A DNA stretch of 55,779 nt from contig JAHFLF010000004.1 in the NCBI GenBank assembly GCA_023255625.1, positions 1 to 55,779 on the forward strand, given 5' to 3'. Source of the DNA: Candidatus Harrisonbacteria bacterium. Its GTDB lineage: Bacteria > Patescibacteriota > Minisyncoccia > UBA6257 > 1-14-0-10-44-23. Shown in pieces: positions 6,101 to 53,686 of the stretch (positions are counted from its first letter, which is position 1; each line of letters opens with the position of its first letter). A program made the translations under genes and the position numbers. The notes under the pieces were generated by a model. That model saw nothing but the letters and a program-made list of their open reading frames with translations, searched no databases and was not told where the DNA came from.

Positions 6101-6141
6101 GCTTGCCCGTCCGTAGTCCGCATTAGAAGGACGAAGGAGGG
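6101..6141. repeat. Short GC-rich hairpin repeat (cttgccc.tccgtag ... cgaaggaggg), related to 48306-48339
   Basis: gcttgcccgtccgtagtccgcattagaaggacgaaggaggg compared with the reverse complement of ccaccctccttcgctaaagctacggagggcaagc. Confidence 0.45.
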
Positions 6142-6162
6142 AACCCGTTATTCCGTAACAAG

Positions 6163-6495
6163 TCATTTAATAAATGACTTATAATAAATTTTGTAAGCTA
6201 CGATAACTGTGCCTAGGCCGATTGCAATGAATACAACCCATCGCGCTAAGTTATCTTGTGGCGGGAATAGGCTAACAGCAATCTGAGAAAAAGTCATAAA
6301 AAACATCGCAAATGAAAGAGATGTCGCAACCTGATTGAATCTGTCGGTGCTCTTATTGGACTTTTCAATCGTATCTTTAAGTCGCCGCATCATTTCAACC
6401 TGCGCCTGCTGGGCTGGAAGGCCGCTAGGCGTACCGATCACACCCCTACCAGCATCGTCGACTAATTCATTATCTGATTTAATATTTTCATTCAT
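6163..6495 (-). CDS. Small two-TM membrane protein downstream of the ATPase-DUF4435 gene
   Basis: 110 aa. Soluble N-terminal half, then SLSFAMFFMTFSQIAVSLF and WVVFIAIGLGTVIVAYKIYY. Same strand as the upstream gene and 48 nt after its stop. Confidence 0.5.
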   Translation of the reverse strand: MNENIKSDNELVDDAGRGVIGTPSGLPAQQAQVEMMRRLKDTIEKSNKSTDRFNQVATSLSFAMFFMTFSQIAVSLFPPQDNLARWVVFIAIGLGTVIVAYKIYYKSFIK

Positions 6496-6543
6496 ATCAA
6501 TAGTCGCTGAATCAGTATCCTCTCAATCCCTGAGGACGATTCA

Positions 6544-8007: not shown

Positions 8008-8125
8008 AAAAATACCCCACTCCCCCGGCTTGGAAGGTTACGGGTGTAAAGTCCTAAGTCATCGGGCTCGTGTGCGCCCACCAACTATTAATTTATCTCA
8101 ATTATACCAATTTTTAAGCCAAAAA

Positions 8126-8359
8126 TCAATTGAGAGCCTTAATAATAGCTTTAAAAATTTCTTCTGGGGCGTCTTTAAGTTGATGTTCCCAAATTTGTAT
8201 GACCTGCCAACCCTTATCACGAAGATTGCGAGTAGTCTTTAAGTCTCGCCGCCTATTTGCTTCTATCTTGGCGCGCCAAAAATCATTTTTAAGCAGATGT
8301 TTCCATCGTGGATATTGCCAGCCGTGCCAAAAATCGCTATCCAAAAAATATCGAGCTTC
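8126..8359 (-). pseudogene. vsr: Remnant of a Vsr very-short-patch-repair endonuclease (C-terminal half only)
   Basis: DSDFWHGWQYPRWKHLLKNDFWRAKIEANRRRDLKTTRNLRDKGWQVIQIWEHQL matches the Vsr C-terminal half (FWHG ... FW..KI..N..RD ... GW.V...WE). An in-frame TAA at 8362..8360 removes the N-terminal half, and there is no ATG start. Confidence 0.7.
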
Positions 8360-8431
8360 TTACTAATTATCTGAATTAAATCAAATTTTGAATCAAAAAT
8401 CACTGTGGATAACTTTCGGTTTAGTTTCGGC

Positions 8432-8437
8432 TATAAT
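8432..8437 (+). promoter_or_regulatory. -10 box (TATAAT) 7 nt upstream of the LexA-MTase ATG; leaderless geometry
   Basis: TATAAT at 8432-8437, ATG at 8445, no SD. Direct repeat TTTCGG-tttag-TTTCGG (8414-8430) abuts the -10. No good -35 was found. Confidence 0.4.
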
Positions 8438-8444
8438 AAAGTAT

Positions 8445-9878: not shown

Positions 9879-10893
9879 GTTCGTCGGGATGTTCGATAGT
9901 GAATTCTATATTCTGACTACCCGTCATAGCAAACGAAAGTGGATTTTTTGCTATAAAAGCATCAAAGGACCTATTACTTAGCGAAGTACCGGTAAAATCG
10001 CCCTTTGTAAACTGCGAAAGTTGCCATTTGTTCCAAGACCAGTTTGCGATATTGTAGCTCCATCCGGTTAACTTTGATAAAAGTGCTAAGAATCTTTCAG
10101 CCCGTTTCTTTGCATCCTGATTAAGCAGATAAAAATTTTCTTCTTCAAGCACAAGGTTGTGGGGTGTTCCTTCACCGCCCCGTAGAGTAATAGTCACCCT
10201 ATCTCCTCGCTCACGCGGGATACTGATAGCGTCTCGCGCTCTAAGAAAATCATTCATCGCAAGCATAAGCTCATGAACCGAATAGTGTTTATTCAAAAAT
10301 ATTTTATTTAGAGCAGTACCCTTCTCCTCTGCACGCAAATATTTTAACCAACTTAAAGAATTTTCAGTATATTGAACCATAGTCATCCAAGTCCCATCGG
10401 CAAAAAGAATTGGCGCGATAGCTCTCTTCGATATTTCTATATTCTGAATGCTGCCAATAAGTCCGACAAGAAAATGAATTGTAGCGAAAGGATATTTTAG
10501 TCGAAAATCATGATATCCGTCATGGCCACGAAGATTATTAATCGATATACAATTATCAAAATTATTCCAGTTAGGAGGTAAGCGGCGATGGTTGTACATA
10601 ACCATATGCTGCCCCACGCTTTTAATCTCCTTGCGAAAAATTTCCATATCCAAAAATACACAATCTCTTGCCTTGAATCCTTTCTGAAGAACTAAAATTT
10701 TCCCATCATAAAAACCTCTCACTTTCCAATTGAGATGATGTGACATAAACAAACCACAAAGCAAGCCATCACTATCTGGGCTTAAAATACAATCCTGATC
10801 GCGCTCAACAATCCAAGGATATTTCTTGATGACCGCAGCATAATCAATAACATCATTACGACCCTCTAACATCTCCTGAATTTTTGAAGACAT
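9871..10893 (-). CDS. Hypothetical protein, candidate cognate nuclease of the LexA-MTase module
   Basis: 340 aa. Convergent with the MTase gene, with 3' ends overlapping by 8 nt. Acidic/Lys patches SPDSDGLLCG and FLDMEIFRKEIK could form a nuclease-type site. No family recognised. Confidence 0.55.
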   Translation of the reverse strand: MSSKIQEMLEGRNDVIDYAAVIKKYPWIVERDQDCILSPDSDGLLCGLFMSHHLNWKVRGFYDGKILVLQKGFKARDCVFLDMEIFRKEIKSVGQHMVMYNHRRLPPNWNNFDNCISINNLRGHDGYHDFRLKYPFATIHFLVGLIGSIQNIEISKRAIAPILFADGTWMTMVQYTENSLSWLKYLRAEEKGTALNKIFLNKHYSVHELMLAMNDFLRARDAISIPRERGDRVTITLRGGEGTPHNLVLEEENFYLLNQDAKKRAERFLALLSKLTGWSYNIANWSWNKWQLSQFTKGDFTGTSLSNRSFDAFIAKNPLSFAMTGSQNIEFTIEHPDELS

Positions 10894-11016
10894 GAAACTC
10901 TAAATAGAAAAATTAAATTGTACCTATCATCGCACTTCTAGGGGCTTTTTTCAACTAAATACAGCAAACTGCTCAACGATGCCGCCATTGAGTCGTTACC
11001 TTTGGTAGAGAAATTA

Positions 11017-11259
11017 TTAAAAATCTGTCTTGGAACTTCCTGCTTTAAATACTTTCCCGGTTTGTAAATCTTTATACTGACCCTTGCGATAAACGAACCG
11101 ATACTTAGCAGTGTCGCTTTTTATCCATTTTTGTTCGCTTTTTGTAGCATACTCTTTTTTATCGACATAGGCATGTCCACGCATAATAGTCTCGCCCTTT
11201 TGGTGATCAAAAAATATTTCGGCCAGTCTTTTATTAACAACCGCAAAGCTCCAACTCAT
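11017..11259 (-). CDS. Small hypothetical protein
   Basis: 80-aa ORF, Lys-rich, no recognisable motif. Supported only by ORF length and strand context. Confidence 0.35.
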   Translation of the reverse strand: MSWSFAVVNKRLAEIFFDHQKGETIMRGHAYVDKKEYATKSEQKWIKSDTAKYRFVYRKGQYKDLQTGKVFKAGSSKTDF

Positions 11260-11329
11260 GCAAAATATAACGGCAGAGCCACAGCAATCGTTACTGCGGG
11301 TCTTTGAGTTTCATCGTAAATTACTTAAA

Positions 11330-17203: not shown

Positions 17204-18351
17204 TCTTAACCGCCAACATCGGCAGTGCCTCGAAAAAATACTCGCTCTTTCGCGATGCGCAAGAGATGATAAGCGCCCATTTTGAAAAATCCGGCCAAGA
17301 CTTTATCGTCAGCTGGAAAAAAGATGGCGCGGTTTCGCAGGAGGTTATCACGCCTGATCAATATGAAATGGCGGCGGAACTGGTTACCACGCACGCCAAA
17401 CAACACGGCACACTAATCGGCATCGGCATTCGCGTCGTGGCCCCAGGAAAATACTTTCAAGAGCACAGGCGCATTGATGATGAGTATTTAACAAAACTGG
17501 CCAAAGCGCAGGAATTCGCACCGCTCCATATCTCTGCCACGCTAGCGGAAATTCAGGAAATGAAAAAACTCTTTCCGCAAACTTTGCTTTTTGCCATAAG
17601 CGATAGCAACTTTCACAAGACATTGCCGGAGGTCGCTAGCTGCTATGCCCTGCCGAGAGAATTCGTAAACCAGTTTGAGCTGCGCCGTTTTGGTTATCAT
17701 GGTCTTTCGCTGCAATCAATTGTAAAAAAACTCCGTGGAACGGACGGCGCAATCCCGGAAAAAGTTATCGTCTGCCACCTCGGTAGCGGCTGCAGCATCA
17801 CCGCGCTTAAAAACGGCCAGAGCATCGAGACATCAATGGGCTTTAGTCCGCTCGAAGGGCTGGTTATGGCCACTCGCAGCGGCTCAATTGATCCCTCGGT
17901 CATCCTGCTTCTGGCCGAAAAATCCGGACTCTCCCTGCGCGATCTGGAAAAAAAGCTGAACAATGAATCCGGTCTTCTGGCTATCGGCGGCAGCAGCGAT
18001 ATCCGCGAACTGCTGAAGCTCGAAAAGAAAGGTGATGCCGCAGCAAAACTCGCCCTCGAACTCTTCAGCTACCGCGTCCGTCAGTATATTGGTGCTTATG
18101 CAGCGACGCTCGGCGGAGTTGATGCACTCGTTTTCACCGGCACAGCCGGTGAACGCTCGGCAATAATGCGGGCCAGAATCTTGGCTGGTTTAGAATTTTT
18201 AAAACTGAAACCAGCCGCGCGGGCTAATAATAAAATCCTCGGCGGAACCGACGGGCAAATCAGCAAACCAGAATCGAAAATACCAATTTATGTTTTTACC
18301 ACAAACGAAGCGGAAGAAATTAGGCAAATAGCGAAGGGTCTTTCGTCGTAA
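17200..18351 (+). CDS. ackA: Acetate kinase
   Basis: MILTANIGSASKKYSLF, RRFGYHGLS, CHLGSGCSITA, ATRSGSIDP and FTGTAGERS. The ATG overlaps the xfp stop (ATGA at 17200-17203). The ORF-track start at 17176 lies inside xfp. Confidence 0.93.
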   Translation: MILTANIGSASKKYSLFRDAQEMISAHFEKSGQDFIVSWKKDGAVSQEVITPDQYEMAAELVTTHAKQHGTLIGIGIRVVAPGKYFQEHRRIDDEYLTKLAKAQEFAPLHISATLAEIQEMKKLFPQTLLFAISDSNFHKTLPEVASCYALPREFVNQFELRRFGYHGLSLQSIVKKLRGTDGAIPEKVIVCHLGSGCSITALKNGQSIETSMGFSPLEGLVMATRSGSIDPSVILLLAEKSGLSLRDLEKKLNNESGLLAIGGSSDIRELLKLEKKGDAAAKLALELFSYRVRQYIGAYAATLGGVDALVFTGTAGERSAIMRARILAGLEFLKLKPAARANNKILGGTDGQISKPESKIPIYVFTTNEAEEIRQIAKGLSS

Positions 18352-27804: not shown

Positions 27805-30800
27805 CTATCGGCCGGTGTTTAGCGCCGCCCGAGTCCCCGGGCCAACATAGCCAACTGCTTCCAGGCCAACGCTCTCTTGATACTTCATGAGCGCCTGCTT
27901 GGTCGCGTTACCGAAGTACCCTTTCGCAGTTCCAGCCGGTATCTTCAAGAATCCTTTGGCTTCTAGGATGTTCTGAAGAGCGATGACATCGGCGTTTTCT
28001 GCCCCCGTCTTGATCATCACCGTAAAGGTGTATGAGCCGGATACAGTTGCCGCAGGTGCAGGAGCGCTAACAGAGGTACTGCCACCAGCTTCAGTACTCA
28101 ACGCTGCCCGAGTCCCCGGACCAGCATAGCCAACGGCTTCCAGGCCGACGCTAGTCTGGTATTGCATCAGCGCTTTCATAGTCGCATTACCGAAGTATCC
28201 TTTGGCAATTCCAGCCGGCATCTTCAGGAATCCTTTGGCTTCGAGAATGTTCTGAAGGGCTACGACATCGTTACCTTCGGAGCCGGTCTTGAGCATGCGC
28301 GTAAAGATACCGGCACTAACCGCTCCAACCTGCTGTCTAGCTTGTAACTGCAACTGCAGAGTTGCAAGCTGCTGGGCCAGCGAAACTGCTGAAGGAGTAT
28401 TTGCAGTTACTGATGGGCTAGTCGGTATAGTAACAGCCGTACCATAACTTCCTCCACCGCCACCACCGCCACTAGTGCTACCACCGCCACCGATAGAGGC
28501 CGCGGTTAAGGTTACGGAAACTGCCGAACTGGCCGCAGATTCATTGCCGCCGGCATTTAACGCCGAAACCTTAAAGTAGTAGGTGCTGCCGTTAGTTAAT
28601 CCGGTTACATCATAACCATTCTGGTTGCCAACCGTCGGCTCCGAACCAACCCGGGCATAGGTGCCGCCCTGGCTGGAACTTTGATACACATCATAACTAT
28701 TTGCACCCGAGACAGAATCCCAGGCCAACCGAACAGTTGTGGCATTAAGTGCCGTCGCGGTGATGCTAGCCGGAGTCTCTGGCGCAGTTGGATCACTTGG
28801 AATTAACGGGGCAAAATCCGAGAAGTGGGAGACCGTTGCCGTCAGCACATCATTAACTGTGTCCACGGTTGTCGGCAAAGTCGTCCAGGAATTAGCCGAC
28901 TCGTTCCAATAACCAAGCTGGATGCTGCTCTCCGAAACTCCAGTCGGCAGATCCGCGGCTGTATATGGCACGGTAATTGTCACATCGCTGTTCAAGCTGG
29001 AGACCTCCTGACCAGATGAGTTGGTAACATTCACGGTTACAGCATTCTTGGTTAGCACACTACCAGTCGTCGGCTTCGGCACATTGGTCGTTGGCTTAGT
29101 CGCAATTGTGGACGGATTAGTATCCGAGCCGGCAGAAGCCGGAGGCATAGTTAACTTGAATCCACTACCAATGTCGTTGTTGGTAAACTGTCCGCCGGAG
29201 GCCGGGGTAAAGGTCTGCTGCTGAAGCGGCTTTGGCGTGTAACCGCTGATTGCAGTAAGCGCCACTGCAATTCCGCTCGGGCTGTTGCTGTTCACTGTAA
29301 CTGGTACGCCGTCAGAATTGTATCCGTCTGCGTGGCCACGAACCGTCCAAGTGCCATTATCAACTGCCAGCGAATAAGCACCGGTTGAGTCAGTTTGGCT
29401 GACCGCAAATCCACCAGCTCCGTCAGTAGCGTCAACGAAGGCCTGGCTCACGCCGGATCCGCCGATGGTAACCGTTCCCGTAATCGTCCGAGAGGCGGTT
29501 GTGAGCACAACATTCTGCGCGGTCAAATTTGCACCAGCTACCGTTACTGAACTTTCTGCCGGTGATTTCAGCCCTTGTTTATCAGCACGCAGATCATAAC
29601 TACCGTCTGGAACCGTGAGAGTATAAGTTCCATTCGAAGCGGTCTGGGTACCAATGTGAATCTTGTTGGTCTGGCCAGCCGGCGTACCGGTCAGCGAGAC
29701 CCAAGCACCCTCCACATTGCTGGCGTTGGCGGTAACTGTTCCGGCAACTGTCCGCTGCGTACCGGCGGTAGCTGTGAAACTTAATGTGGTGCTCGTATTG
29801 ACATTCGATTGCGCTCCAATCGGACCAAAGGCCGGGTGAGCCGCGCGAATCGTGTAAGTACCTGGCGACAACTGAAGAGTGTAGACGGCAAGAGTACCCG
29901 AAGCCACACTGACATTCGTTCCATTACCTCGCCCATTTGTATCGCGAGCATCAACAAAGGCATTAGTGATACCAGTTGTGCCGTCTGTGAGTCCAACCAC
30001 AACCGTGAGCGAGGCGCCCGGAGCACAGTTCTTGCCGGAGGTTGTGGTGTTCGCAGAAACAGTGACGCTACCGGTTACAACCGAATCACCTACACCAGGG
30101 ATAAAGCAGCTGACGGTGTAGGAGCCCGGCGGAACCTTGATGCTGTATGCGCCGCTGGCATCAGTCGTCGCCATGTTGCCGCCGTTATCTCCTTCGGCTC
30201 GAACATTCGCACCCTGCTGGGCAACGCCGCCCTTAGTAACAGAGCCGGTGATTGTGCCAAAGGTAACTGTCGCCGCGCTAAAGTCCTGACCGGTTACCGC
30301 GGTTGTACCAACGGTAATTGTCTTTGTGCCAAGTTTTCCAAACCCAGGCGCAAAGGCAGAAACTCTCCAGGTTCCGGCACTAACATACAATGTATAGCTT
30401 CCAGCACTATCAGTCGGCCCGCCGACAAAGTTTTGCGCACCGCCACCGAGTGAGGTCGTGTCGCTAGTAGAGGTAATCTTTTCCGCAGAAACACCGGCGT
30501 AGGAAATTGCGTTACCACCGTCATCTTTAACTGTTCCACTAATCGTAAGCCCAGAGGTACTGATGGCCATGACAAAGCTCAAGCTAGCCGGAACATTTGT
30601 TCCAGAGGTCGGCACGCTGATAGCCAGGTCTGGTACAAACGGCATACCCGGCTTGTTCGCGTTCACCAGATAATTACCGGCGACCACATTCAATGTAAAG
30701 CTGCCGTCAGTCTGCGTTTGCGCGCTGGTACCAAAACCAACGCTGCTACCGCCGCCGCCAGTTGTAGATCCTTCAGTTGGCCGGGCAAAAACTTGTACGC

Positions 30801-33800
30801 CGCTAATACCAGTACCGGCGCTGTCGCGAACATACCCGGTGATGGTCTTACCGGCCGCCGTTAAAGTAAAGTTCTTACCGGTAATGTTTGCTCCAAGAAC
30901 CTGGACGGTGATATTTGGCGGAGGCATAAAGGTAAATGTCGGCGCAGGCGGAGCGGCCTGACCAGGAGTCATTGGCGGCATAGCCGGGCCAACGCCCACC
31001 TGATAAGTCGTGCTGGCATTTACCGGCAGACTATAAGCGAAAGTGCCGCCGCCATTGGTCGTTCCCGTCTTCTTAGTAAACCCGCTCGGGCTGGAAGCGA
31101 AGACATCAACTTTCGTGTTAGCCGGACCAGTAATCGTGCCGGCGATCGTGAATGCGGCCGCCGTTAAACCAAGGTTTTTAGTGGTTGTACCGCTACTGAT
31201 TGAGATTGGCTGGGGCGCACTGTTAAAAACATAGTCGCCGGCCGCAGCCACGCTGTCTGGTGCAATGCCAAGCATGTAATCTCCGACGGCCAGACCAGAG
31301 AAGGTAGTCGTACCATTGGCACCGCTGGTTGCCTCAATACCGCCAGATGCCGGGCTACCTAAGAAGGCGCGGATGTTGGCCACGCCGGCTTCTGTTCCGC
31401 TCTTGATATTGTCTCCAGCCGTAGCGCCGCCAGCACCGTTATCTACAAAGACATTGAGTACTACGACAGCAGAGCCAGACTGACCAAGATAGAACGGATT
31501 CGAGGTCATATTTTCTTTCGTCACGCTGCTCGTGTCCTGGGTCAAAATCGTAACCGTGTAACCGTTGCTGGACGGCGCGGTAGAGTTCACGATTCCTTTC
31601 AGGGTAAAGCGCAGGAAGTCATTCGCCGTTGAGGCAGCACCGGCTGTCGTAACAGTAATCGTTCGCGCCGAGGCGTTTACCGCAACTGAACCAATCGTAA
31701 TCGTGCCGGTATTTGGGCCGTTCAGGTCACCGTTTGCAAAGCTCTCGGTACCAACCGTTGCGGCAACCGCGTTTGTAACATCAAAGCCGACCGGAAAAGT
31801 TACAAGAATCTTACCGCCAAGCGGCACAACCTGCGATACCGGAAATTCAAACTCGTAGTTGGAGGTGGCGCCGGCAGATCGGTTAGTCGGCGTAGCACGA
31901 ATCGGCATTGTACCGGCCTGATTCGGATTCTGCTGCGAAGTGCCGCAGTTTAAGCAGCCGCCGGTCGTGTTGGAGTTCGCCACCGTGAACTGCGTGGTGT
32001 TTGCCGCCGGAGTACCCGTAGTGAGTATTGCGTTACCGGCTAAATCCTGCAAAGCAGTGCTGGCAGTAATCTTAATTGTCGCGCCGGTTGTCAGCGACAA
32101 ACCGCTGATGCGGGCCGCCATCATCATGCCGTCATAAGTAACGGTTTTGCCGGAGAGCGAGATCGAAGTTCCAACCGGACTCTCGACTGTGTAATTCGAG
32201 ATATTATCTGCGGCATTTGCACCACCGCCGGACTGCATCGGCTCGGAGAAGGTTATGGCCGCGCCAAAGTTATCGGCGTTACCAAAGGTTACCGACGGGC
32301 CGGTGCTGTCGGTGGCACTGTCGGTGGTAAAGGTCGAAGTAAAATTCTGGTTACCGCCGGTACCCGAATCAGCATCCAGCGCATTGCCAATAATGTCTGT
32401 AACACCGGAGGTAATAGTGAAGGTATAGGTTGTGTTGCTGGCAAGCTGGCTAGTCGGACTGGCGCAGATTGTCCGGCTGTTCGGACTGTAGCTCACATTG
32501 ACCGCAATGCTGCCAGAAAGCGTAACGGTGGAAGCGGTTACAGTGGAAGCGTCGATGTCTTTCGACATACCAGAACAAACAATCGTATTGCGCTTGACCG
32601 CGGTCGCTCCGGCACTTGGGAAGACGCCATTTGCAGTCGGATGAGACGAATCGGCAGATCCGGCCGGAGTTTTAAAGTTCAGGAAGTAGGTATTGTTCAG
32701 AGCGGTGCCAGTATAACTCAAAGTGGTTGTACCGACTTTCAGAATGTAACCGGTTGAGGCGGTTAAATTTGAAGATGGAGTAACCGTTAGCGTAGTCGAA
32801 GCAGCATCGAGCGATCGCGTTGCAGTTATTGGCGTACCTGGAGCACCAAAGTTATCAGTATAAAGAGTAACATTGGAGCTGCTCAAAGCCGAACTGCCCA
32901 TCGCCTGTGAGAATGTGAGTTTTATCGGCGCGTTTATCGGATGCGATTGCGATCCGGAATTTGGCGCGGTTGATTGAACAAATGGCGGCGCAATGTTCGT
33001 ACCGCCGGTGGCACCGGTAGTAAAGCTAACTGTCGAGGTGGTGCCCAAAGCGTTACCGGCCTTGTCGCTAACCGCCGGACCAACCGTAACTACATAAGCC
33101 GTATTTGTCGTGAGCGGACTCACCGAATTATCAAAGCGCAGGTTGGCGCTGCTAATCGTGCCCGGACCGGAAACCAGGTGGAACGAATAGGTATTTAGCG
33201 GACTAGCATTTGCCGTGGCTTTCGCAAAGACGATATCGCCATTTGCCAGCGCAAGAACATTGTCAGTGACTGCCGCTTGCACTGTAGTTGCTAGCCGGAC
33301 CATCACCGAGCCGCCAGCCACGCGCGAGGTCGTCGTAGAGTTTCCGTCTAAAACTGCTGTGCTTGTCGCATCAGCCGAGAGATCACCCGCGGTAGTCGCC
33401 AGATGCCAGCTATAGGTCGTTGTGCCGACATTGGCAAAGACTAAGTCTCCTTGGCTGACCGCCAGAACGCTAGTCGAAGAAGCTGTCGAAGCCGCCAAAC
33501 TGTAGCGGGCGGCGGTCGGATAAGTCGGCGCGCCGGAGCCGCCATCAAAACGCAAAGTACTGCTGGAGATAGCTCCGGCGGTAGTTACAACATGCCAGTT
33601 GGTACGGGTTGTGTCGCCGGAATTTGTCGCCGTTTTGACTACAACTAGATCACCGACTTTGAAAGCGGGGTCAATCGCTGTTACTAAACCGGTCTGCGTT
33701 GCGGCCGCAACTTTAATCAGCTGCTGTCCGCCAAAAAGAGTTGTGCCGTTGACCGAAAAGGTTCCAGAAGTCTGCGTCGCATTAGTAACAATACCAAGCT

Positions 33801-34797
33801 CGGCCGGGAATGACTCGTGCTGGAAATAAATAATATCGCCAAGAGCGGGCCCAAAATAACTTCCATTAAAGAAGATTGGATTGGTGGCGCTAGAAAACAT
33901 GAAACTACTGACGCCAGCGGTCGGGAATTTGGCGAAGCGGGAGCTGGCGGCATAGGTCGGGGCAGAAGAAGGCACGATGTTGACATTGTTGAAGTTCGGA
34001 TTAACGGCGATCGAAACCGGCGAGCCGGCCGCAGTCATAGTGATATTGCTCGGCGTAAGCGTCGAAGGATCCATCTGTTCGGAGAAGCCGACACCGATGA
34101 AAGCACTAATCGGAACATTCGTGGAGTTATTCTGCGGTCCGGTCATACTGAAGTCCACTGTCGGCGCGGCAGTATCAACCGTAATCATACTGCTAGTTGC
34201 CGCCAAAATAGTCGGAGAGCTGGTGCTGGTAATAATGCCATCTGCCGGAATTGTTGCTTTGAAAGTTGTACTGTTGGTCAAACCGGAACTATCGGGTTTA
34301 ACTACAACATAAAAAATCTGACCGGTAGCCAGGGTCGTTGTGCTGCCCGGGGTTAGAGTGAAAACATTGGATGCAGCATAGACCGGACTGGCGGCCAAAG
34401 TTATCTGCGTATCGGCTGCGGCCGAAAAACCGGTGCCGGCGGTCTCTCGCCAAAGTTGCACGCCGCCATTTGTCGTTGCCAGGTCGGCCAATTCAGAAGA
34501 GCTAGCGGCAGTATTGTTCCAGGTCGGTGAACCGCTTTGGCCGGTAAACCGAACTTTGACTCCGGTCAGCGCCTGCGTATCTTCGTCGCTACCAATCGTA
34601 ACTTTCAAAACTGCGGCAGAGCTACCACCCTGCTTAAAGAAGACACCGCCAAAGGTCGGATCTGAAACTACCGAGACCGCTGCTCCAGCAAAATGAACGG
34701 CGACCAAACTACTAATAAAAAGAGCGGACACTAAAATTAAAAGTGCCGCCCTGACTACCGAGTAACGAGAAACACCAAACGCATTTTGCGTGTCCAT
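27805..34797 (-). CDS. Giant (2330 aa) cell-surface protein: SbsA/Big_5 Ig-like repeats, carboxypeptidase-regulatory-like repeats, FN3, and two C-terminal peptidoglycan-binding domains
   Basis: N-terminal signal anchor. Big_5-type segments (DTAAPTVDFSMTGPQNNSTNVPISAFIGVGFSEQMDPSTL). At least five CarboxypepD_reg-like units (ITGYVRDSAGTGISGVQVFARP and others). FN3 (VRLAWDSVSGANSYDVYQS ... YYFKVSALN). Tandem PG_binding_1 (NDVVALQNILEAKGFLKMPAGIAKGYFGNATMKALMQYQ, two copies). Confidence 0.9.
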   Translation of the reverse strand: MDTQNAFGVSRYSVVRAALLILVSALFISSLVAVHFAGAAVSVVSDPTFGGVFFKQGGSSAAVLKVTIGSDEDTQALTGVKVRFTGQSGSPTWNNTAASSSELADLATTNGGVQLWRETAGTGFSAAADTQITLAASPVYAASNVFTLTPGSTTTLATGQIFYVVVKPDSSGLTNSTTFKATIPADGIITSTSSPTILAATSSMITVDTAAPTVDFSMTGPQNNSTNVPISAFIGVGFSEQMDPSTLTPSNITMTAAGSPVSIAVNPNFNNVNIVPSSAPTYAASSRFAKFPTAGVSSFMFSSATNPIFFNGSYFGPALGDIIYFQHESFPAELGIVTNATQTSGTFSVNGTTLFGGQQLIKVAAATQTGLVTAIDPAFKVGDLVVVKTATNSGDTTRTNWHVVTTAGAISSSTLRFDGGSGAPTYPTAARYSLAASTASSTSVLAVSQGDLVFANVGTTTYSWHLATTAGDLSADATSTAVLDGNSTTTSRVAGGSVMVRLATTVQAAVTDNVLALANGDIVFAKATANASPLNTYSFHLVSGPGTISSANLRFDNSVSPLTTNTAYVVTVGPAVSDKAGNALGTTSTVSFTTGATGGTNIAPPFVQSTAPNSGSQSHPINAPIKLTFSQAMGSSALSSSNVTLYTDNFGAPGTPITATRSLDAASTTLTVTPSSNLTASTGYILKVGTTTLSYTGTALNNTYFLNFKTPAGSADSSHPTANGVFPSAGATAVKRNTIVCSGMSKDIDASTVTASTVTLSGSIAVNVSYSPNSRTICASPTSQLASNTTYTFTITSGVTDIIGNALDADSGTGGNQNFTSTFTTDSATDSTGPSVTFGNADNFGAAITFSEPMQSGGGANAADNISNYTVESPVGTSISLSGKTVTYDGMMMAARISGLSLTTGATIKITASTALQDLAGNAILTTGTPAANTTQFTVANSNTTGGCLNCGTSQQNPNQAGTMPIRATPTNRSAGATSNYEFEFPVSQVVPLGGKILVTFPVGFDVTNAVAATVGTESFANGDLNGPNTGTITIGSVAVNASARTITVTTAGAASTANDFLRFTLKGIVNSTAPSSNGYTVTILTQDTSSVTKENMTSNPFYLGQSGSAVVVLNVFVDNGAGGATAGDNIKSGTEAGVANIRAFLGSPASGGIEATSGANGTTTFSGLAVGDYMLGIAPDSVAAAGDYVFNSAPQPISISSGTTTKNLGLTAAAFTIAGTITGPANTKVDVFASSPSGFTKKTGTTNGGGTFAYSLPVNASTTYQVGVGPAMPPMTPGQAAPPAPTFTFMPPPNITVQVLGANITGKNFTLTAAGKTITGYVRDSAGTGISGVQVFARPTEGSTTGGGGSSVGFGTSAQTQTDGSFTLNVVAGNYLVNANKPGMPFVPDLAISVPTSGTNVPASLSFVMAISTSGLTISGTVKDDGGNAISYAGVSAEKITSTSDTTSLGGGAQNFVGGPTDSAGSYTLYVSAGTWRVSAFAPGFGKLGTKTITVGTTAVTGQDFSAATVTFGTITGSVTKGGVAQQGANVRAEGDNGGNMATTDASGAYSIKVPPGSYTVSCFIPGVGDSVVTGSVTVSANTTTSGKNCAPGASLTVVVGLTDGTTGITNAFVDARDTNGRGNGTNVSVASGTLAVYTLQLSPGTYTIRAAHPAFGPIGAQSNVNTSTTLSFTATAGTQRTVAGTVTANASNVEGAWVSLTGTPAGQTNKIHIGTQTASNGTYTLTVPDGSYDLRADKQGLKSPAESSVTVAGANLTAQNVVLTTASRTITGTVTIGGSGVSQAFVDATDGAGGFAVSQTDSTGAYSLAVDNGTWTVRGHADGYNSDGVPVTVNSNSPSGIAVALTAISGYTPKPLQQQTFTPASGGQFTNNDIGSGFKLTMPPASAGSDTNPSTIATKPTTNVPKPTTGSVLTKNAVTVNVTNSSGQEVSSLNSDVTITVPYTAADLPTGVSESSIQLGYWNESANSWTTLPTTVDTVNDVLTATVSHFSDFAPLIPSDPTAPETPASITATALNATTVRLAWDSVSGANSYDVYQSSSQGGTYARVGSEPTVGNQNGYDVTGLTNGSTYYFKVSALNAGGNESAASSAVSVTLTAASIGGGGSTSGGGGGGGSYGTAVTIPTSPSVTANTPSAVSLAQQLATLQLQLQARQQVGAVSAGIFTRMLKTGSEGNDVVALQNILEAKGFLKMPAGIAKGYFGNATMKALMQYQTSVGLEAVGYAGPGTRAALSTEAGGSTSVSAPAPAATVSGSYTFTVMIKTGAENADVIALQNILEAKGFLKIPAGTAKGYFGNATKQALMKYQESVGLEAVGYVGPGTRAALNTGR

Positions 34798-34930
34798 GGA
34801 AAATTAAATAATTAAATAATATTAATAAATTCGTAGCGAAAAATATTTCAATCAGGAGCACGATGCTCCTTGTAATTAGTATAGCTCCGTTTTCATGGCC
34901 GCTTGACAAGCGATGTGGATAACTTTCGAG

Positions 34931-34995
34931 AAACACCGCTCCGCTGTTTTGCGAGGAACGGGGTTCTATCCTCGCAAAACAGCGGAGCGGTGTTT
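34931..34995. repeat. Family-1 hairpin D: perfect 26-bp stem around the conserved core cgagg-aacggggttctat-cctcg
   Basis: Arms 34931-34956 / 34970-34995 are exact reverse complements. The core is the reverse complement of the core in hairpins E and F. Confidence 0.85.
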
Positions 34996-35010
34996 ATTTT
35001 TGGAGGGATT

Positions 35011-35081
35011 AGAAAAACCGGGGCCAGCTCTGCACGAGGATAGAACCCCGTTCCTCGTGCAGAGCTGGCCCCGGTTTTTCT
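35011..35081. repeat. Family-1 hairpin E: perfect 29-bp stem around the conserved core cgagg-atagaaccccgtt-cctcg
   Basis: Arms 35011-35039 / 35053-35081 are exact complements. The arm sequence is unrelated to D and F, and A/T runs at both ends resemble a bidirectional terminator. Confidence 0.85.
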
Positions 35082-35106
35082 GCTGAAATATATTTTGAAA
35101 AAATTC

Positions 35107-35168
35107 AAAACAAAACAGGCGGTTCGCGGGGATAAATCTTCTTTCCCGTGAACCGCCTGTTTTGTTTT
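35107..35168 (-). terminator. Intrinsic terminator of the 35178..36464 gene
   Basis: 24-bp stem (35107-35130 / 35145-35168, one G-T pair) 9 nt after the stop. On the minus strand it is followed by gaatttttt. Confidence 0.7.
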
Positions 35169-35177
35169 ATTTTCTCT

Positions 35178-36464
35178 TTATTGATGCGGCACTGAAAGCA
35201 TCGGAATCTCTCCTGGAGCACCGTGATCAATGTAGCCAGCCGAAGCAACCGCAGCCGCAGGCACCGGCTGCTTCTGCGCTTTCCAGTTAGCGGGCCGATC
35301 AACATTGAAGTGACGCAGAATACGATAACCAATATAACCCAAGACGGCCACAATCAGTAAAATCCAGAGCACCGGCTGATTCAATAACCGCCCGAGCTGT
35401 CCAAGCAATGAGGTAGAACCAACAGTCGTAGCCAATACAGAACCAACACCACTGTCAGAGCCAACCGTGGTCGGAATCTGGGTACGAACAGTAAAGGGCA
35501 GGATCATCTGCTCACCGCTATTGGCCGTGGCGTCCGTAGAAAATGCACCGATTCGGAAGAAATAAGTTTTATTCTCCAGACAACCCAACTTAACCTGGTG
35601 ATTTTTCTGATAAGAATTTCCCTCTGGCGCACTGGCTGCGTACTGGAAACTATCATTCAATGGCTGCGATGTCGGGCCATACATAACCTGGCCGACGGTC
35701 GCGACACTAGTCTGCCAATTCACTAAAACTTCACAATTACGATCTTCGCGGTCATTGATATTTTTCGGCCCGCTAATCACATTAATATTCGAGAAGGTTA
35801 TTTCTTTCGGAGTTTTCTTACCGCCGAAAAATGCGCCCAGTGCCGAGCCGCTGTAACCAGTTGTCTTTTCGTTAGAATTTGGATTAATCGAATTTGAACC
35901 GCTGGAATTACCGGTCGCACCGCCATAACCATATTGACGAACAGTAATTGTGTAGCTTTGCGTTACGACCGGCGAACGGCCATCGGTAGCTCCGACAACC
36001 ACCGGAAAACTCTGGCCGATTTTTCCCGAAGTTCCGCTCCAGCGAATCAGCCCCGTCGCTGAATCAATAGTCATTCCGACCGGGCCGGAGATTAGCTGAT
36101 AAAAAATCTGATCATGATCCGGATCGGTGGCATTAATTCCGGCGACATAAGTGTTGCCATCAATAGCATCTCGAACCGGCGTAGAAAAGATAACCGGCGG
36201 CCGGTTTATTGAGTTATTGTAGTTTGAGCCAGAATAGTTGTTGTAACCATAAGAACCGCCATAAACAACCGCTTGGCTGCCATAACCATTATAGTTATAC
36301 TGAACCGGATAATATTGGCTGCGCTGGACTGTATAAGTATCGTAATAGATCGGCTGTCCCTGTTGATCCAGGTAATATGCGGCAGATGCTGGAAAAGCGA
36401 CCGCCAGGGCCGTCAAACCAACAGAAATCGCGATAGCAAGCTTAGAAACGGTAAGGTTTTTCAT
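35178..36464 (-). CDS. Surface protein paralog 1: signal peptide, N/Y-rich region, cadherin-like (He_PIG-type) Ig domain, FN3-like domain, C-terminal TM anchor
   Basis: MKNLTVSKLAIAISVGLTALAVAFPASA. PPVIFSTPVRDAIDGNTYVAGINATDPDHDQIFYQLISGPVGMTIDSATGLIRWSG. VLVNWQTSVATVGQVMYG ... HQVKLGCLENKTYFFRIGAFS. Anchor VLWILLIVAVLGYIGYRIL. The ATG at 36464 is preferred over the TTG at 36512. Confidence 0.85.
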   Translation of the reverse strand: MKNLTVSKLAIAISVGLTALAVAFPASAAYYLDQQGQPIYYDTYTVQRSQYYPVQYNYNGYGSQAVVYGGSYGYNNYSGSNYNNSINRPPVIFSTPVRDAIDGNTYVAGINATDPDHDQIFYQLISGPVGMTIDSATGLIRWSGTSGKIGQSFPVVVGATDGRSPVVTQSYTITVRQYGYGGATGNSSGSNSINPNSNEKTTGYSGSALGAFFGGKKTPKEITFSNINVISGPKNINDREDRNCEVLVNWQTSVATVGQVMYGPTSQPLNDSFQYAASAPEGNSYQKNHQVKLGCLENKTYFFRIGAFSTDATANSGEQMILPFTVRTQIPTTVGSDSGVGSVLATTVGSTSLLGQLGRLLNQPVLWILLIVAVLGYIGYRILRHFNVDRPANWKAQKQPVPAAAVASAGYIDHGAPGEIPMLSVPHQ

Positions 36465-36527
36465 ATAAGTATATAATAGCATACCTATTGAATTTGTCAA
36501 GCCCAAACACAATGATAGGGGGAATTA

Positions 36528-36593
36528 CCCCAAACTTCTCCCCAAGATGAGCAGGGATACCTTTTACTGCTCCCTATGGGGAAAAGTTTGGGG
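36528..36593. repeat. Family-2 nested hairpin A (inverted orientation): 17-bp outer stem around the conserved ~30-nt core
   Basis: Arms ccccaaacttctcccca / tggggaaaagtttgggg (one mismatch). The core agatgagcagggataccttttactgctcccta is the reverse complement of the core of B and C. Confidence 0.8.
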
Positions 36594-36615: not shown

Positions 36616-36687
36616 GGAAACTCCGAAGTCCCGCCAAAGGGAGCACTAAATCTTCTGTGCTCATCTTGGCGGGACTTCGGAGTTTCC
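36616..36687. repeat. Family-2 nested hairpin B: perfect 22-bp outer stem around the core agggagcac..gtgctcatc
   Basis: Arms ggaaactccgaagtcccgccaa / ttggcgggacttcggagtttcc. The inner stem gagcac/gtgctc carries a compensatory change relative to gagcag/ctgctc in A and C. Confidence 0.85.
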
Positions 36688-37267: not shown

Positions 37268-37346
37268 GACCACCTCCTGGAAACGGACACCACCGACGCG
37301 GCGGTATCACCATGTCTTAATATACACCTGCTAAAATATTTTGGCC

Positions 37347-37422
37347 AGAAACCTAAAAGTTCCCGCCAAAGGGAGCAGTAAAAGGTACCCCTGCTCATCT
37401 TGGCGGGAACTTTTAGGTTTCT
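37347..37422. repeat. Family-2 nested hairpin C: perfect 23-bp outer stem around the core agggagcagtaaaaggtacccctgctcatc
   Basis: Arms agaaacctaaaagttcccgccaa / ttggcgggaacttttaggtttct. Same orientation as B, and it shares cccgccaa|core|ttggcggg with B. Confidence 0.85.
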
Positions 37423-37430
37423 GTTTTACA

Positions 37431-42576: not shown

Positions 42577-42581
42577 GTGCA

Positions 42582-42947
42582 GGTACCCGGACGATCGCGT
42601 CCCGCTTTGCGGGATGAGGAAAATCGGGACACTCAACTTGCCGCAAGGCGGGTAGTCGCAGTGGGTAACGCCCATCAGTTGTAAAACAGCGGTGCGAACA
42701 GTGACGCGCGTGGCGAAAGCTTACGCGGGACCCTATCCCAACGTAGAAGGTCTAACTCCACTATAGGGAGACAAGGTGGAGGTGAAACGGCTAAATCCGT
42801 GCGAGAGTGCAAGGCCGCGCCTGCCGATAATTTGCAAAAATTATTGACGGGAGTGCCGCTTGAGCCCGCGAGTAATTGCGGGCCTAGACAAATGATTGTC
42901 GCGCCGATTCAAAATCGGTGCAACAGAATCCCGTTTATGAGGTACCA
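42582..42947 (+). ncRNA. rnpB: RNase P RNA, bacterial type A-like
   Basis: Conserved blocks: gaggaaaatcgggac (compare GAGGAAAGUCCGGGC), gtgggtaacgcc, ggaggtgaaacgg, gcttgagcc..gcg.gtaattgc..ggcctagacaaatgattgtc, acagaatcccgtttat. The 5' ggtacc pairs with the 3' ggtacc (P1). Ends are approximate, within about 5 nt. Confidence 0.88.
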
Positions 42948-42950
42948 AAA

Positions 42951-42976
42951 AATTCCGCTGCAAAGCGGAATTTTTT
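42951..42976. terminator. Bidirectional intrinsic terminator between rnpB and the convergent 792-aa gene
   Basis: aattccgc-tgcaaa-gcggaatt, flanked by an A-run on the left and a T-run on the right. Confidence 0.75.
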
Positions 42977-45826: not shown

Positions 45827-45937
45827 AATTTTCAATTTCTAATTTTTAATTTTCAAACAATGACTTAATGTCTAATTTCAAAATTTTTAAATTGAAAATT
45901 GTTTAGAAATTAGAAATTGAAAATTAGAAATTTATTT
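45827..45937. repeat. T element copy 1 (AT-rich, about 100 nt, imperfect long hairpin)
   Basis: aattttcaatttctaatttttaattttcaaacaatg ... attgtttagaaattagaaattgaaaattagaaattt. It fills the whole spacer from the exonuclease stop (45938) to the rnhA ATG (45826). Confidence 0.85.
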
Positions 45938-49725: not shown

Positions 49726-49824
49726 AAATTTTCAATTTCTAAGTTTCAATTTTCAAACAATGATTTAATTTCGGAATTTCTAAATTGGAAATTGTTTAGA
49801 AATTAGAAATTGAGAATTAGAAAT
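49726..49824. repeat. T element copy 2
   Basis: aaattttcaatttctaagtttcaattttcaaacaatgatttaatttcggaatttctaaattggaaattgtttagaaattagaaattgagaattagaaattta. It spans exactly from the L15 stop (49825) to the secY ATG (49725). Confidence 0.88.
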
Positions 49825-51067: not shown

Positions 51068-51073
51068 ATTTTT

Positions 51074-51114
51074 TATTCGTACTTTCGTGATTTGATTCGT
51101 TATTCGTAGCTCTC
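51074..51114. repeat. R element copy 1 (L18 to S5 spacer)
   Basis: tattcgtactttcgtgatttgattcgttattcgtagctctc. The adjacent cta at 51114-51116 is the rplR TAG stop. Confidence 0.85.
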
Positions 51115-51482
51115 TAAAACTGTAGCCCTCCCGCTCGAGCTCCTTCGGCGAGTGCCCGAACCTGTCCATGGTAAGCATATCGTCCGCGATCAAACACGAC
51201 TGTCTTTACTCCCTGCTTAATTGCGCGTTCGGCAACAATCTTGCCAAGCTCAACTGCGCGATCAACTCGCGCACCCGGAACTTTTGATTTGACGGCTTTA
51301 ATCTCGGAAAGTTTGGCCGAAGCAACCGTCTTGCCCAAAGAGTCATCAATGACCTGCGCGTACAAATTCTGATTGCTGCGATAAACAGAAAGACGCGGGC
51401 GACGCGCAAAACCCTTAAGATGCCCGCGAATGCTGTGGGCGCGCCGAGCTCGAGTCTGATTTTTTTTGATGCTTCTTTTCAT
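51114..51482 (-). CDS. rplR: 50S ribosomal protein L18
   Basis: RARRAHSIRGHLKGFARRPRLSVYRSNQNLYAQVIDD ... VVFDRGRYAYHGQVRALAEGARAGGLQF. Confidence 0.95.
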   Translation of the reverse strand: MKRSIKKNQTRARRAHSIRGHLKGFARRPRLSVYRSNQNLYAQVIDDSLGKTVASAKLSEIKAVKSKVPGARVDRAVELGKIVAERAIKQGVKTVVFDRGRYAYHGQVRALAEGARAGGLQF

Positions 51483-51517
51483 GTTTCTTGTTTATCTTTT
51501 TATTTTATAGCTTATGC

Positions 51518-51578
51518 GATATGCTGACCAGTTGTGCGAGGATAGAACCCCGTTCCTCGCGCGACTGGCCAGCATATC
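51518..51578. repeat. Family-1 hairpin F in the L6 to L18 spacer: 24-bp stem (3 mismatches) around the core cgagg-atagaaccccgtt-cctcg
   Basis: Arms gatatgctgaccagttgtgcgagg / cctcgcgcgactggccagcatatc. The 25-nt core gcgaggatagaaccccgttcctcgc is identical to the reverse complement of the D core. Confidence 0.8.
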
Positions 51579-51587
51579 AGCGTTCCG

Positions 51588-52130
51588 CTATGCTGCTCCC
51601 GCCACCTTCTTACCTTCCTTACGCCGGACCTGTTCGCCAAGATAACGGATACCCTTACCCTGATACGGCTCCGGTTTTTTAAATTGACGAATCTTCGCTG
51701 CGGTCTGTCCGACAACCTGCCGATCAATTCCGGAAATTGTAATAAAACTTTTTTCCAAAACGATTGTAATTCCGGCCGGCGGGACAAATTTGATCGGATG
51801 AGTAAAACCGAGCGCCAGAACGAGCGTCTTCCCCTCCATCGCCGCTTTGTAGCCAATACCCTGCACATCCAGCTTCTTTTCAAAACCGGTAGTAACGCCA
51901 GTAACAGCATTGCTCAAATGCGCAGCCATTGTACCCCAATTTGCCCGTGCTTGCACCTGCGTCGTGGCAACCGTCAAGGTCAGCACTCCACCCTCAAGAT
52001 GTACTTTGACATAAGGAAGAATCGGCACGACGAGTGAGCCGTTCTTACCTTTGATAGTAACCGCCGTTTCGTTAACGGTTGCGGTTACGCCCTCGGGCAA
52101 TGCAATTGGTTTTTTTCCGATCTTACTCAT
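51588..52130 (-). CDS. rplF: 50S ribosomal protein L6
   Basis: MSKIGKKPIALPEGVTATVNETAVTIKGKNG ... KKPEPYQGKGIRYLGE. Confidence 0.95.
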   Translation of the reverse strand: MSKIGKKPIALPEGVTATVNETAVTIKGKNGSLVVPILPYVKVHLEGGVLTLTVATTQVQARANWGTMAAHLSNAVTGVTTGFEKKLDVQGIGYKAAMEGKTLVLALGFTHPIKFVPPAGITIVLEKSFITISGIDRQVVGQTAAKIRQFKKPEPYQGKGIRYLGEQVRRKEGKKVAGAA

Positions 52131-52140
52131 ATACTTTTTT

Positions 52141-52179
52141 TATTCGTACTTTCGTAAAAATTCGTTATTCGTAGCTCTA
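52141..52179. repeat. R element copy 2 (S8 to L6 spacer)
   Basis: tattcgtactttcgtaaaaattcgttattcgtagctcta. Its terminal cta is the rpsH TAG stop. Confidence 0.85.
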
Positions 52180-53414: not shown

Positions 53415-53642
53415 CTATTTAACCATGACATTACTTCGATCAATCGGCCTGGCAATGCTAACCATCTGACCCTTCTCGCCCTGCTTAGTCGCCCGCTTGT
53501 GTCTCTTGACCATATTAATCCCCTCAACGAGCACTTTATTTTCTTTTGGAAAAACACGAATTACCTTACCGCTCTTGGTGCGGTCTTTTCCTTTCAGAAT
53601 AAGGACGGTGTCTCCTTTTTTAATGCTCATTTTCATATTCAT
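53415..53642 (-). CDS. rplX: 50S ribosomal protein L24
   Basis: KOW motif IKKGDTVLILKGKDRTKSGKVIRV. Three in-frame ATGs (53642, 53636, 53630) exist, and the true start may be 53630 (MSIKKGD). Confidence 0.9.
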   Translation of the reverse strand: MNMKMSIKKGDTVLILKGKDRTKSGKVIRVFPKENKVLVEGINMVKRHKRATKQGEKGQMVSIARPIDRSNVMVK

Positions 53643-53646
53643 ATTC

Positions 53647-53686
53647 TATTCGTACTTTCGTAATATATTCGTTATTCGTAGCTCTA
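53647..53686. repeat. R element copy 3 (L14 to L24 spacer)
   Basis: tattcgtactttcgtaatatattcgttattcgtagctcta. Its terminal cta is the rplN TAG stop. Confidence 0.85.

Follow-up and report, generated by a model that had tools for sequence, protein, structure and literature searches.

We analysed a stretch of 55,779 nt (hereafter, the window: positions 1-55,779 of contig JAHFLF010000004.1, assembly GCA_023255625.1, Candidatus Harrisonbacteria bacterium), in which three long hairpins, here called D, E, and F, carry an identical tip on stems that differ. A fourth hairpin with the same tip, L004F, is found in a related genome, at the place that F occupies in the window. What defines a member of this family (family 1) is its tip, the loop AACGGGGTTCTAT with its closing G-C pairs, which is shared over 17 nt across species and over 23 nt within the genome. 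Tentatively, we read D, E, F, and L004F as one small, lineage-private family of discrete, duplicative palindromic inserts, the tip of which would be read by a putative factor and the stems of which would have been sculpted by template switching. The contrast between a conserved tip and a free stem had been pointed out in a preliminary description of the window; the comparison across species strengthens it, and the stems turn out to be less unrelated than was claimed there. The three hairpins of the window and the spacer that contains F are:

34931-34995, plus strand: hairpin D, arms 34931-34957 and 34969-34995 (27 nt, 100% complementary), core 34952-34974
35011-35081, minus strand: hairpin E, arms 35011-35040 and 35052-35081 (30 nt, 100% complementary), core 35035-35057
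51518-51578, minus strand: hairpin F, arms 51518-51542 and 51554-51578 (25 nt, 88% complementary), core 51537-51559
51483-51587, minus strand: the rplF-rplR spacer containing F (105 nt)

The core is the 23-mer CGAGGATAGAACCCCGTTCCTCG, found in exactly three copies in the window with 0 mismatches (34952-34974 on the minus strand, 35035-35057 and 51537-51559 on the plus strand), against an expectation of 0 in shuffled sequence. No further match was present in the window at up to three mismatches, and the search on both strands placed each copy at the tip of a long inverted repeat. The identity of the three cores and the inversion of the one in D, both reported earlier, are thus borne out. The loop AACGGGGTTCTAT (13 nt) lies on the plus strand in D and on the minus (mRNA-sense) strand in E and F, i.e., the loop of D is inverted relative to the other two; the sense transcript shows AACGGGGUUCUAU in F, L004F, and E, and the complementary loop in D. 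The stems of D and E are perfect, as had been stated, but they measure 27 and 30 bp, not 26 and 29, once the closing A-T pair is counted. The mismatches of F are three, all transitions. RNA folding gave minimum free energies of -54 (D), -63.8 (E), and -42.3 kcal/mol (F), with z-scores of -11.5, -11.5, and -8.0, respectively. The terminator-like A/T runs described for D and E are built into the base of their stems, and F has no T-run.

All the genes around D, E, and F are on the minus strand. The flanking genes are as first described: D and E, together with a neighbouring hairpin, I5, lie between the stop of a gene for a He_PIG-domain protein and the start of a gene for a 2330-aa protein, both surface proteins, and F sits within the spc ribosomal-protein operon. 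Hairpin I5 is not a member of family 1 and reaches only 29 bits under the covariance model of the family (R1, see below). The neighbours are:

35107-35168, minus strand: terminator hairpin I5 (24 bp with one mismatch, then a T-run)
35178-36512, minus strand: He_PIG-domain protein gene, upstream neighbour of I5, E, and D
27805-34797, minus strand: gene for the 2330-aa Big_5/CarboxypepD_reg/fn3/PG_binding surface protein, downstream of D
51588-52130, minus strand: rplF (L6), flanking F
51114-51482, minus strand: rplR (L18), flanking F

The behaviour of tip and stem could be separated thanks to L004 (CAZXKC010000001.1), a related Patescibacteria metagenome-assembled genome (MAG) that is among the closest sequenced relatives (~81% ribosomal-protein identity). 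The rplF-rplR spacer of L004 is 103 nt long and contains the hairpin L004F (10555-10609) at the same place and in the same orientation as F; its flanks have 69-74% DNA identity to the window, and therefore it is not contamination from the window organism. Between F and L004F, the tip, consisting of the 13-nt loop and two closing G-C pairs, is identical at 17/17 positions, while the stem is identical at 32/54 aligned columns (59%). The chance that 17 tip positions remain unchanged at a stem identity of 0.59 is 0.59^17, about 1e-4, and the AT-rich tail of the spacer, with an identity of ~62%, leads to the same conclusion: the tip is constrained. The stem has changed in a paired manner. Among the 27 aligned pairs of F and L004F, 14 have stayed the same and six have changed cleanly on both sides (compensatory changes); one A:T pair is absent from both arms together (a symmetric 1-bp indel), and the few mismatches are transitions. 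When the four members are considered, 94% of the cells pair and 15/23 pairs change on both sides, a level of pairing and covariation reached by 0/500 shuffles and not approached by slid registers. The loop is constant, while the stem is free as long as pairing holds. A recognised loop presented on arbitrary stems, one of the two readings in the preliminary description, is the better supported of them, with the correction that the stems are not wholly unrelated.

In the ordinary terminators of these genomes the pattern is reversed: their stems of 12-16 bp are recognisably conserved from one genome to another, and their loops of 4-6 nt vary. The contrast previously drawn with repetitive extragenic palindromic (REP) sequences, CRISPR repeats, and attC sites, based on a conserved apex and a free stem, is in this respect a fair one. 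Furthermore, D and E follow the He_PIG gene and have A/T runs at the stem base, while F and L004F are located inside the spc operon and have no T-run; since the runs are present in the former and absent from the latter, the tip module appears to be independent of termination. All four members were missed by a simple terminator scan, which allows loops of 3-8 nt only.

The hairpin at the rplF-rplR spacer is absent from other relatives. The spacer is 12-26 nt long, AT-rich, and without either arm in L143 (GCA_964549935.1, where it measures 14 nt), in L144 (a Logan assembly), in L145 (a JGI contig), and in the P0003 contig. Amino acid identities computed over the shared ribosomal proteins and SecY were 89.1% between L004 and L143, 80.8% between the window and L004, 80.6% between the window and L143, and 80.0% between the window and L144; with 89.1% identity, L143 is therefore the sister of L004, though it has no hairpin. 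In the alignment of the two sisters, the palindrome is a clean gap of ~68 nt. The absence from L143 implies either a single gain together with one or more precise losses, or that this spacer received an insertion twice; the F/L004F hairpin is a discrete unit of gain and loss. Since the empty sites had no hairpin, F was not dropped into a pre-existing terminator, and the earlier proposal of an element inserting into the apex of existing terminator hairpins is contradicted for F by hairpin-free relatives that show neither arm. The rest of the operon is similarly dynamic. In the window genome, it has eight spacers of ~100 nt, each with a long imperfect hairpin, and six hairpin-bearing spacers differ between L004 and L143. 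The hairpin that the window genome, L004, and L144 have in the L15-secY spacer is missing from L143, and it would thus seem that hairpins do get lost in L143. In this clade, the turnover of hairpin inserts, by birth and by loss, is plainly rapid.

Further observations concern this spacer and the inserts of the operon. More distant genomes of the candidate phyla radiation (CPR) have unrelated long hairpins in the same rplF-rplR spacer: two of them (L052 7270-7438 and L080 10549-10732) share a different long palindromic insert, CTGTCATTGCGAGAAG...ACGACGAAGCAATC..., and six further genomes have unrelated ones. Palindromic inserts appear to have a hot spot in this spacer. In the rplD-rplW spacer of L004 (4369-4442), there is an L004-specific hairpin insert, CCCCGGTACTAGAACC TACT GGTTCAGTACGGGG, containing the words TAGAACC and ACGGGG/GGTTC, which are also words of the family-1 loop, in another arrangement; the sharing may be due to chance or to a remote relationship. 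A promoter-like site on the sense strand (TGGTCA, 17 nt, TAAAAT; window 51502-51530, minus strand) overlaps the 3' arm of F, and L004 has a perfect TATAAT (10621-10626) 8 nt past its hairpin. An internal promoter serving rplR and the downstream genes may come with the insert.

Two further repeats were observed in the spacers of the ribosomal operon. One is an AT-rich imperfect-hairpin repeat of ~95 nt, AATTTCTAATTTCTAAACAAT ... ATTGTTTGAAAATTGAAAATTAGAAATTGAAAATTT, with near-identical copies in at least five spacers, which end 0-18 nt upstream of the start codon of rplD, rplP, rpsH, secY, rplB, or an RNase H gene. Its 3' half is invariant, and at the position of the secY copy L004 has a diverged counterpart; the repeat may be a spreading module of the 5' untranslated region or an element similar to a MITE (a miniature transposable element with inverted repeats). 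The other is found in short spacers before rpmC, rplX, rplF, and rpsE, all with AGCTACGAATAACGAAT....ACGAAAGTACGAATA. Words of the (T)ACGAAT type are also repeated in the operon spacers of other CPR genomes (L008, L038, L050, and L143), and these motifs may be a conserved translation or processing signal. The positions are:

L001 2456-2558, 6296-6396, 8817-8925, and 11659-11757 (the last equal to window 49726-49824): copies of the ~95-nt repeat
part of L001 3486-3539, and window ~45836-45937: further copies of the ~95-nt repeat
L001 6811-6860, 7800-7852, 9307-9352, and 10370-10415 (the last three equal to window 53631-53683, 52131-52176, and 51068-51113): spacers with AGCTACGAATAACGAAT....ACGAAAGTACGAATA

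The ancestry of D and E was approached through the relatives in which the He_PIG ortholog is followed directly by rluA, namely L148 (from the same genome as L004) and L149 (from another relative). Compared with this arrangement, the 2330-aa gene and D are extra in the window genome. After the He_PIG gene, L148 has a single long hairpin (11253-11313) with a perfect outer stem of 22 bp and a 17-nt tip, CCGCCTTAGACGGGCAA, which differs from the family-1 tip and is shorter. The right arm of E with its 3' flank gave its best local alignment to this terminator (2/300 shuffles), and in an apex-anchored comparison of the arms (500 shuffles) E and the L148 terminator were the strongest pair (0/500). 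The same comparison gave p=0.006 for D and E, p=0.016 for D and the L148 terminator, and p=0.03 for D and L004F, with no similarity to the other terminators compared; it is a weak test, in which the true positional homologs F and L004F reach only p=0.13. The inner 14 bp of D are identical at 11/14 positions to F and to L004F, and the similarity between members decays outward from the tip and does not end at the 23-mer. The blastn-short search for the arms as copies of other sequence gave nothing beyond chance in all the DNA collected. The statement that the outer arms have no similarity to one another is therefore borne out only in part: no two members have a full-length stem in common, and some similarity is seen for the inner part of D and for the D-E pair.

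Hairpins D and E both run from AGAAA... to ...TTT(A/C)T with the same loop orientation, and are thus inverted copies of the whole unit. The probable source of E's outer stem is the former terminator of the He_PIG gene upstream, given the alignment of stem and 3' flank; insertion into the tip of an existing terminator, contradicted for F, obtains moderate support for E and, by paralogy, for D. The tip at E may have been gained here or lost in the L004 lineage.

Other features of this neighbourhood were noted. The 2330-aa gene (27805-34797) has a G+C content of 0.53-0.55, compared to the 0.44-0.50 typical of the window. A perfect DnaA-box consensus, TTATCCACA, is located at 34914-34922 on the minus strand, between D and the point where the 2330-aa gene starts; one such box in 56 kb has a chance probability of ~0.35, and no switch in GC skew occurs at this position. 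An invertible promoter switch between the inverted cores of D and E was considered and rejected: the segment is only 60 bp long, no gene for a recombinase was observed, and 34600-35400 yielded no promoter-like site of the sigma-70 type.

The window is the final 55.8 kb of a 126-kb ENA metagenome contig and comes from an uncultured Patescibacteria of the Parcubacteria group, near Harrisonbacteria. An identical window sequence occurs in independent ENA and Logan assemblies from other samples, and the hairpin sequences are also present in an unrelated MAG of another study; therefore, the hairpins are not an accident of assembly. Hairpins D, E, and F are 100% identical in all the other assemblies of the organism, among which no empty-site or flipped-loop allele was found at D, E, or F. 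A sequencing hairpin adapter was also excluded as the source of the tip, as the hairpins lie within unique sequence in independent assemblies; to our knowledge no hairpin adapter matches CGAGGATAGAACCCCGTTCCTCG, although no search aimed at adapters was made.

The family appears, from the searches carried out, to be private to one lineage of Patescibacteria (Parcubacteria, near Harrisonbacteria). A 19-mer of the core was absent from the genome_contigs collection and a 21-mer from the viral_contigs collection. The 17-mer of the tip, GGATAGAACCCCGTTCC, had 24 matches in 596 Gb of species-representative genomes and 35 in a metagenome collection, all single and in unrelated taxa, with flanking complementarity only at the rplF-rplR site of L004; one match, in L111, was evaluated as a candidate member and discarded, as it falls within a coding region. 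The covariance model R1, built from D, E, F, and L004F, recovered these four and no other member in 1.2 Mb of related CPR sequence. No further copy was found in the ~15 kb of the source genome that lie beyond the window (L150 and L003), which bring the source genome covered to ~71 kb. No Rfam 15 family matched the hairpins at the gathering score, and the E-value mode returned only sub-threshold matches to generic long hairpins (microRNA precursors).

The substitutions between F and L004F are not equivalent on the two strands. In 4/5 events, their non-Watson-Crick pairs read C*A when taken on the mRNA strand and G*U when taken on the other one, and the antisense strand folds better by 4.4 kcal/mol in F and by 14.0 kcal/mol in L004F, with 4/100 and 0/100 shuffles as extreme, respectively. 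Across the long spacers of the operon, the asymmetry between sense and antisense folding is compositional in the AT-rich ones and goes beyond composition only in F and L004F. This asymmetry, drawn from a small sample of about five substitution events, hints that the selected form is an antisense RNA or a template-strand DNA, or else that selection has weakened the mRNA hairpin within the operon.

The preliminary description had not considered template switching during replication. In inverted repeats, this process produces perfect stems in one event, copies one arm onto the other and so generates multi-base "compensatory" changes, and also extends the arms and inverts the spacer (PMC8604942, PMC7202029, PMC8794818). 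Homogenised arms, multi-base paired changes, and spacer inversion are all observed in the hairpins. The perfect arms and the inverted core, which seem exotic, have a known mutational explanation: template switching accounts for the perfection of the D and E arms, for substitutions that come in pairs, for the symmetric indel, and for D's inverted loop, and no special biology is needed. It does not suffice for everything. The process needs a pre-existing arm and the empty rplF-rplR sites have neither, so F was not created in this way, and the invariance of the loop is left unexplained.

Among the closest known systems are the REP and REPIN elements, mobilised by the RAYT (Y1 HUH) transposases. 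These are also short intergenic hairpin palindromes found in both orientations at gene 3' ends or between cistrons, gained and lost between relatives, and thought to be read as hairpins by a trans-acting enzyme. In REPs, however, conservation concerns the stem sequence and a 5' GTAG/CGTC tag, and the loop varies freely (PMC3733652, PMC3333891), while in family 1 it concerns the loop together with the uppermost part of the stem, the remainder being free; there is no tag, the arms of D, E, and F begin with AGAAAC.., AGAAAA.., and GATATG.., and the stems differ. REPs typically exceed 100 copies per genome (PMC2817692), against three in ~71 kb here and one exact 17-mer in the L004 genome, and no RAYT or Y1 transposase is encoded among the window genes. 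Differently from MITEs, the copies of which are similar over their whole length and have terminal inverted repeats and a target-site duplication, only 23-41 nt are shared and no consistent direct repeats flank D, E, or F. Integron attC sites, with their R/L boxes conserved at the stem base, differ as well, since the stem bases vary here, D and E are perfect and have no extrahelical bases, and the window has no integrase. CRISPR and tandem interspaced guide RNA (TIGR) arrays are unlike a set of two adjacent units and a distant one, with no cas or tas genes in the window. TIGR-Tas systems are nonetheless similar in having variable yet palindromic stems and conserved loop motifs and in occurring in CPR, where they are known from bacteria and phages; their units form tandem arrays beside a Tas (Nop-domain) gene, with large loops that bear box C/D motifs and two spacers of 8-12 nt (PMC12045711). 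A stem of a TIGR-Tas array was rejected as an identity for the hairpins: the loop AACGGGGTTCTAT has 13 nt without RUGAUGA or CUGA, and neither an array nor a nearby Tas gene is present.

The tip of E on a terminator-like stem resembles a nested insertion, as left by insertion sequences (IS) that target hairpins; IS1397 inserts into the loop itself. Pre-existing extragenic palindromes can be specific targets, of IS1397 and ISKpn1 in REP/palindromic units, and of the IS110-family ISPpu9 in REPs (PMC1525189, PMC12288879). These are kilobase elements with their own transposase; the unit inserted here would be 21-41 nt long and non-coding, and F entered no hairpin. A sequence-specific loop on a free stem is instead the design of rolling-circle Rep (HUH) origins, lambda boxB, and the AGNN-capped Rnt1p substrates. 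The hairpins share with them a conserved loop on a variable stem, but the analogy stops at design: no Rep, N-like, or RNase gene is associated with them, there is no common loop consensus, and the site is chromosomal and intercistronic.

In the reading that we tentatively prefer, the tip would be the recognition site of a putative trans-acting factor, which would either copy the element or use it for the host, and template switching inside the inverted repeats, acting as it is known to do, would yield the perfect locus-specific arms, the paired changes, the symmetric indel, and the flipped loop of D. The rplF-rplR copy F would be the older, and D and E a young inverted pair arisen by duplication, with outer stems from the He_PIG terminator and an inner part from family 1, acquired through nested insertion or tip replacement. 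Several points weigh against this reading. A copy-and-paste element should leave recent twins, and no two members share a full-length stem. The family has four members with ~71 kb of the source genome covered, a single exact copy of the 17-mer in the L004 genome is odd for a mobile family, and no transposase, HUH nuclease, integrase, Rep, or relaxase gene was found in the 56-kb window or in the flanks read. Template switching is local and cannot move a tip over the 16 kb from F to D and E. The outer-arm similarities involve 20-25 nt each and are statistically modest. Both histories of F are also uncomfortable: vertical inheritance keeps the tip intact for long at one locus, which needs selection at the level of the host and not of mobility, and two insertions mean that the same spacer was struck independently. 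Vertical inheritance is what would be expected of a host cis-regulatory RNA whose loop is bound by a host protein or RNA and which was lost in L143; for example, an endoribonuclease or stability factor might punctuate the spc mRNA and mark the 3' end of the He_PIG transcript, with D and E as later duplications recruited in the same way. F and L004F are in a transcribed spacer, in the same orientation, with an identical loop and compensatory stem changes, E has that orientation within the sense transcript, long hairpins occur in eight spacers of the operon, and the L15-secY hairpin is missing in L143, which seems to lose hairpins. We consider this explanation rather unlikely, as the C*A pairs fall on the mRNA strand and folding is better in antisense, contrary to the expectation for selection on the mRNA, as D shows the complementary loop, as the sister genome L143 and other relatives lack the element, and as no Rfam family matches.

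The identity of the tips could also reflect recent transfer and not selection, if a mini-hairpin of ~21-41 nt moved, or was gene-converted, into the tips of other hairpins. This would fit the 23 nt identical in D, E, and F on different stems, the related outer stem with a different 17-nt tip at the site of L148 orthologous to E, the presence of the tip in L004 only at rplF-rplR, as for a spread from F within the window lineage, and the loops shared among otherwise different neighbours (I5/I3 and I1/I6). It is unlikely, given that the empty rplF-rplR sites offer no hairpin to invade, that passage between species would require the horizontal transfer of 17 nt, that the change at E may be a loss in L004 and not a gain here, and that we know of no enzyme that moves so small a unit. 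We give equally little credence to a variant in which the tip is the spreading unit, i.e., a mini-hairpin with a 13-nt loop and 5-14 bp copied by a loop-reading enzyme into AT-rich spacers as well as terminator tips, with template switching afterwards lengthening and perfecting its stems. If true, such a genetic element, ultra-small and nesting in hairpins, would belong to an undescribed kind, and both the identity of tips on outer stems that are not homologous and the mosaic of shared loops in I5/I3 and I1/I6 would be explained. A single-stranded DNA or antisense-strand site with the loop ATAGAACCCCGTT, read by a DNA enzyme (a primase, a recombinase, or an HUH-type nuclease that cuts one strand at or close to a conserved loop) or acting as part of an antisense transcript, would account for the mismatch asymmetry in favour of the strand complementary to the mRNAs, for both orientations, and for discrete gain and loss, and a conserved loop on a variable stem would be analogous to a rolling-circle Rep origin. 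We judge it very unlikely: neither the window nor the flanks read encode a Rep, HUH, or relaxase protein, no promoter-like site on the plus strand reads into F, and the asymmetry comes from about five substitution events. Lastly, these genomes commonly have long perfect hairpins and terminators and the family is tiny, so the hairpins might be neutral palindromes or terminators with a shared tip of no significance or, as a variant, an assembly artefact. This is highly improbable, because a 17/17 tip against 59% stem identity cannot be neutral and the same sequences recur in independent ENA/Logan assemblies and in the unrelated MAG. We class the hairpins among the palindromic repeats, as a small, lineage-private, duplicative kind defined by its tip.

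Other hairpins of the window belong to a second family, located between surface-protein genes (36528-36593, 36616-36687, and 37346-37423). They have a conserved mid-stem, CCAAAGGGAGCA / TGCTCATCTTGG, an internal loop, and outer stems that are diverged but compensated. Loops are shared in a mosaic manner: I1 and I6 have TAAAAGGTAYCC (inverted), and I3, the family-2 hairpin at 36616-36687, shares the loop AGAAGATTTA with the unrelated terminator I5 (35107-35168). The family-2 core is private to this genome, with 21 matches in genome_contigs, equal to the chance expectation and none of them a hairpin.

The window also encodes a bacterial class A RNase P RNA (42579-42953, plus strand; 88.5 bits, E 1.8e-27), whose score is below the Rfam gathering score of 100, so that default annotation misses the gene; the L004 ortholog (18008-18345, minus strand) scores 75.4 bits. 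The P4/CR-V strand of this RNA, ACAGAAUCCCGUU (42923-42935), is identical at 11/13 positions to the family-1 loop read on the plus strand. As ~1.2 such matches are expected by chance in the window, the resemblance is probably a coincidence, and a link between the loop and RNase P was discarded. Mimicry of a tRNA T-arm by GGUUCUAUCC was rejected by eye, the flanking bases having no conserved T-stem in both species; for mimicry of ribosomal-protein binding sites (sarcin-ricin loop, 5S loop), the resemblances by eye are only loose. Finally, an island of low G+C content (0.35-0.44; window ~3000-10900) contains defence- or addiction-like genes, namely Fic, an AAA_21/DUF4435 ATPase, and a fusion of a LexA/S24 peptidase domain with an N6_N4 DNA methyltransferase.

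The pair formed by F and L004F, with a half-replaced stem that still pairs, a symmetric indel, and an untouched loop, illustrates the way in which hairpins stay perfect, and separates selection on the loop from what template switching can do in the arms. Within this clade, ribosomal-protein operons gain and lose hairpin inserts of ~70-115 nt between sister genomes, which affects the annotation of operons in CPR MAGs and the prediction of terminators. If the tip is a recognition module, family 1 would be a palindromic repeat family built in the opposite way to REP, CRISPR, and attC, with a conserved tip and a free stem, and it would point to a factor reading hairpin tips in Patescibacteria, a group whose regulation and mobile elements are almost unexplored.

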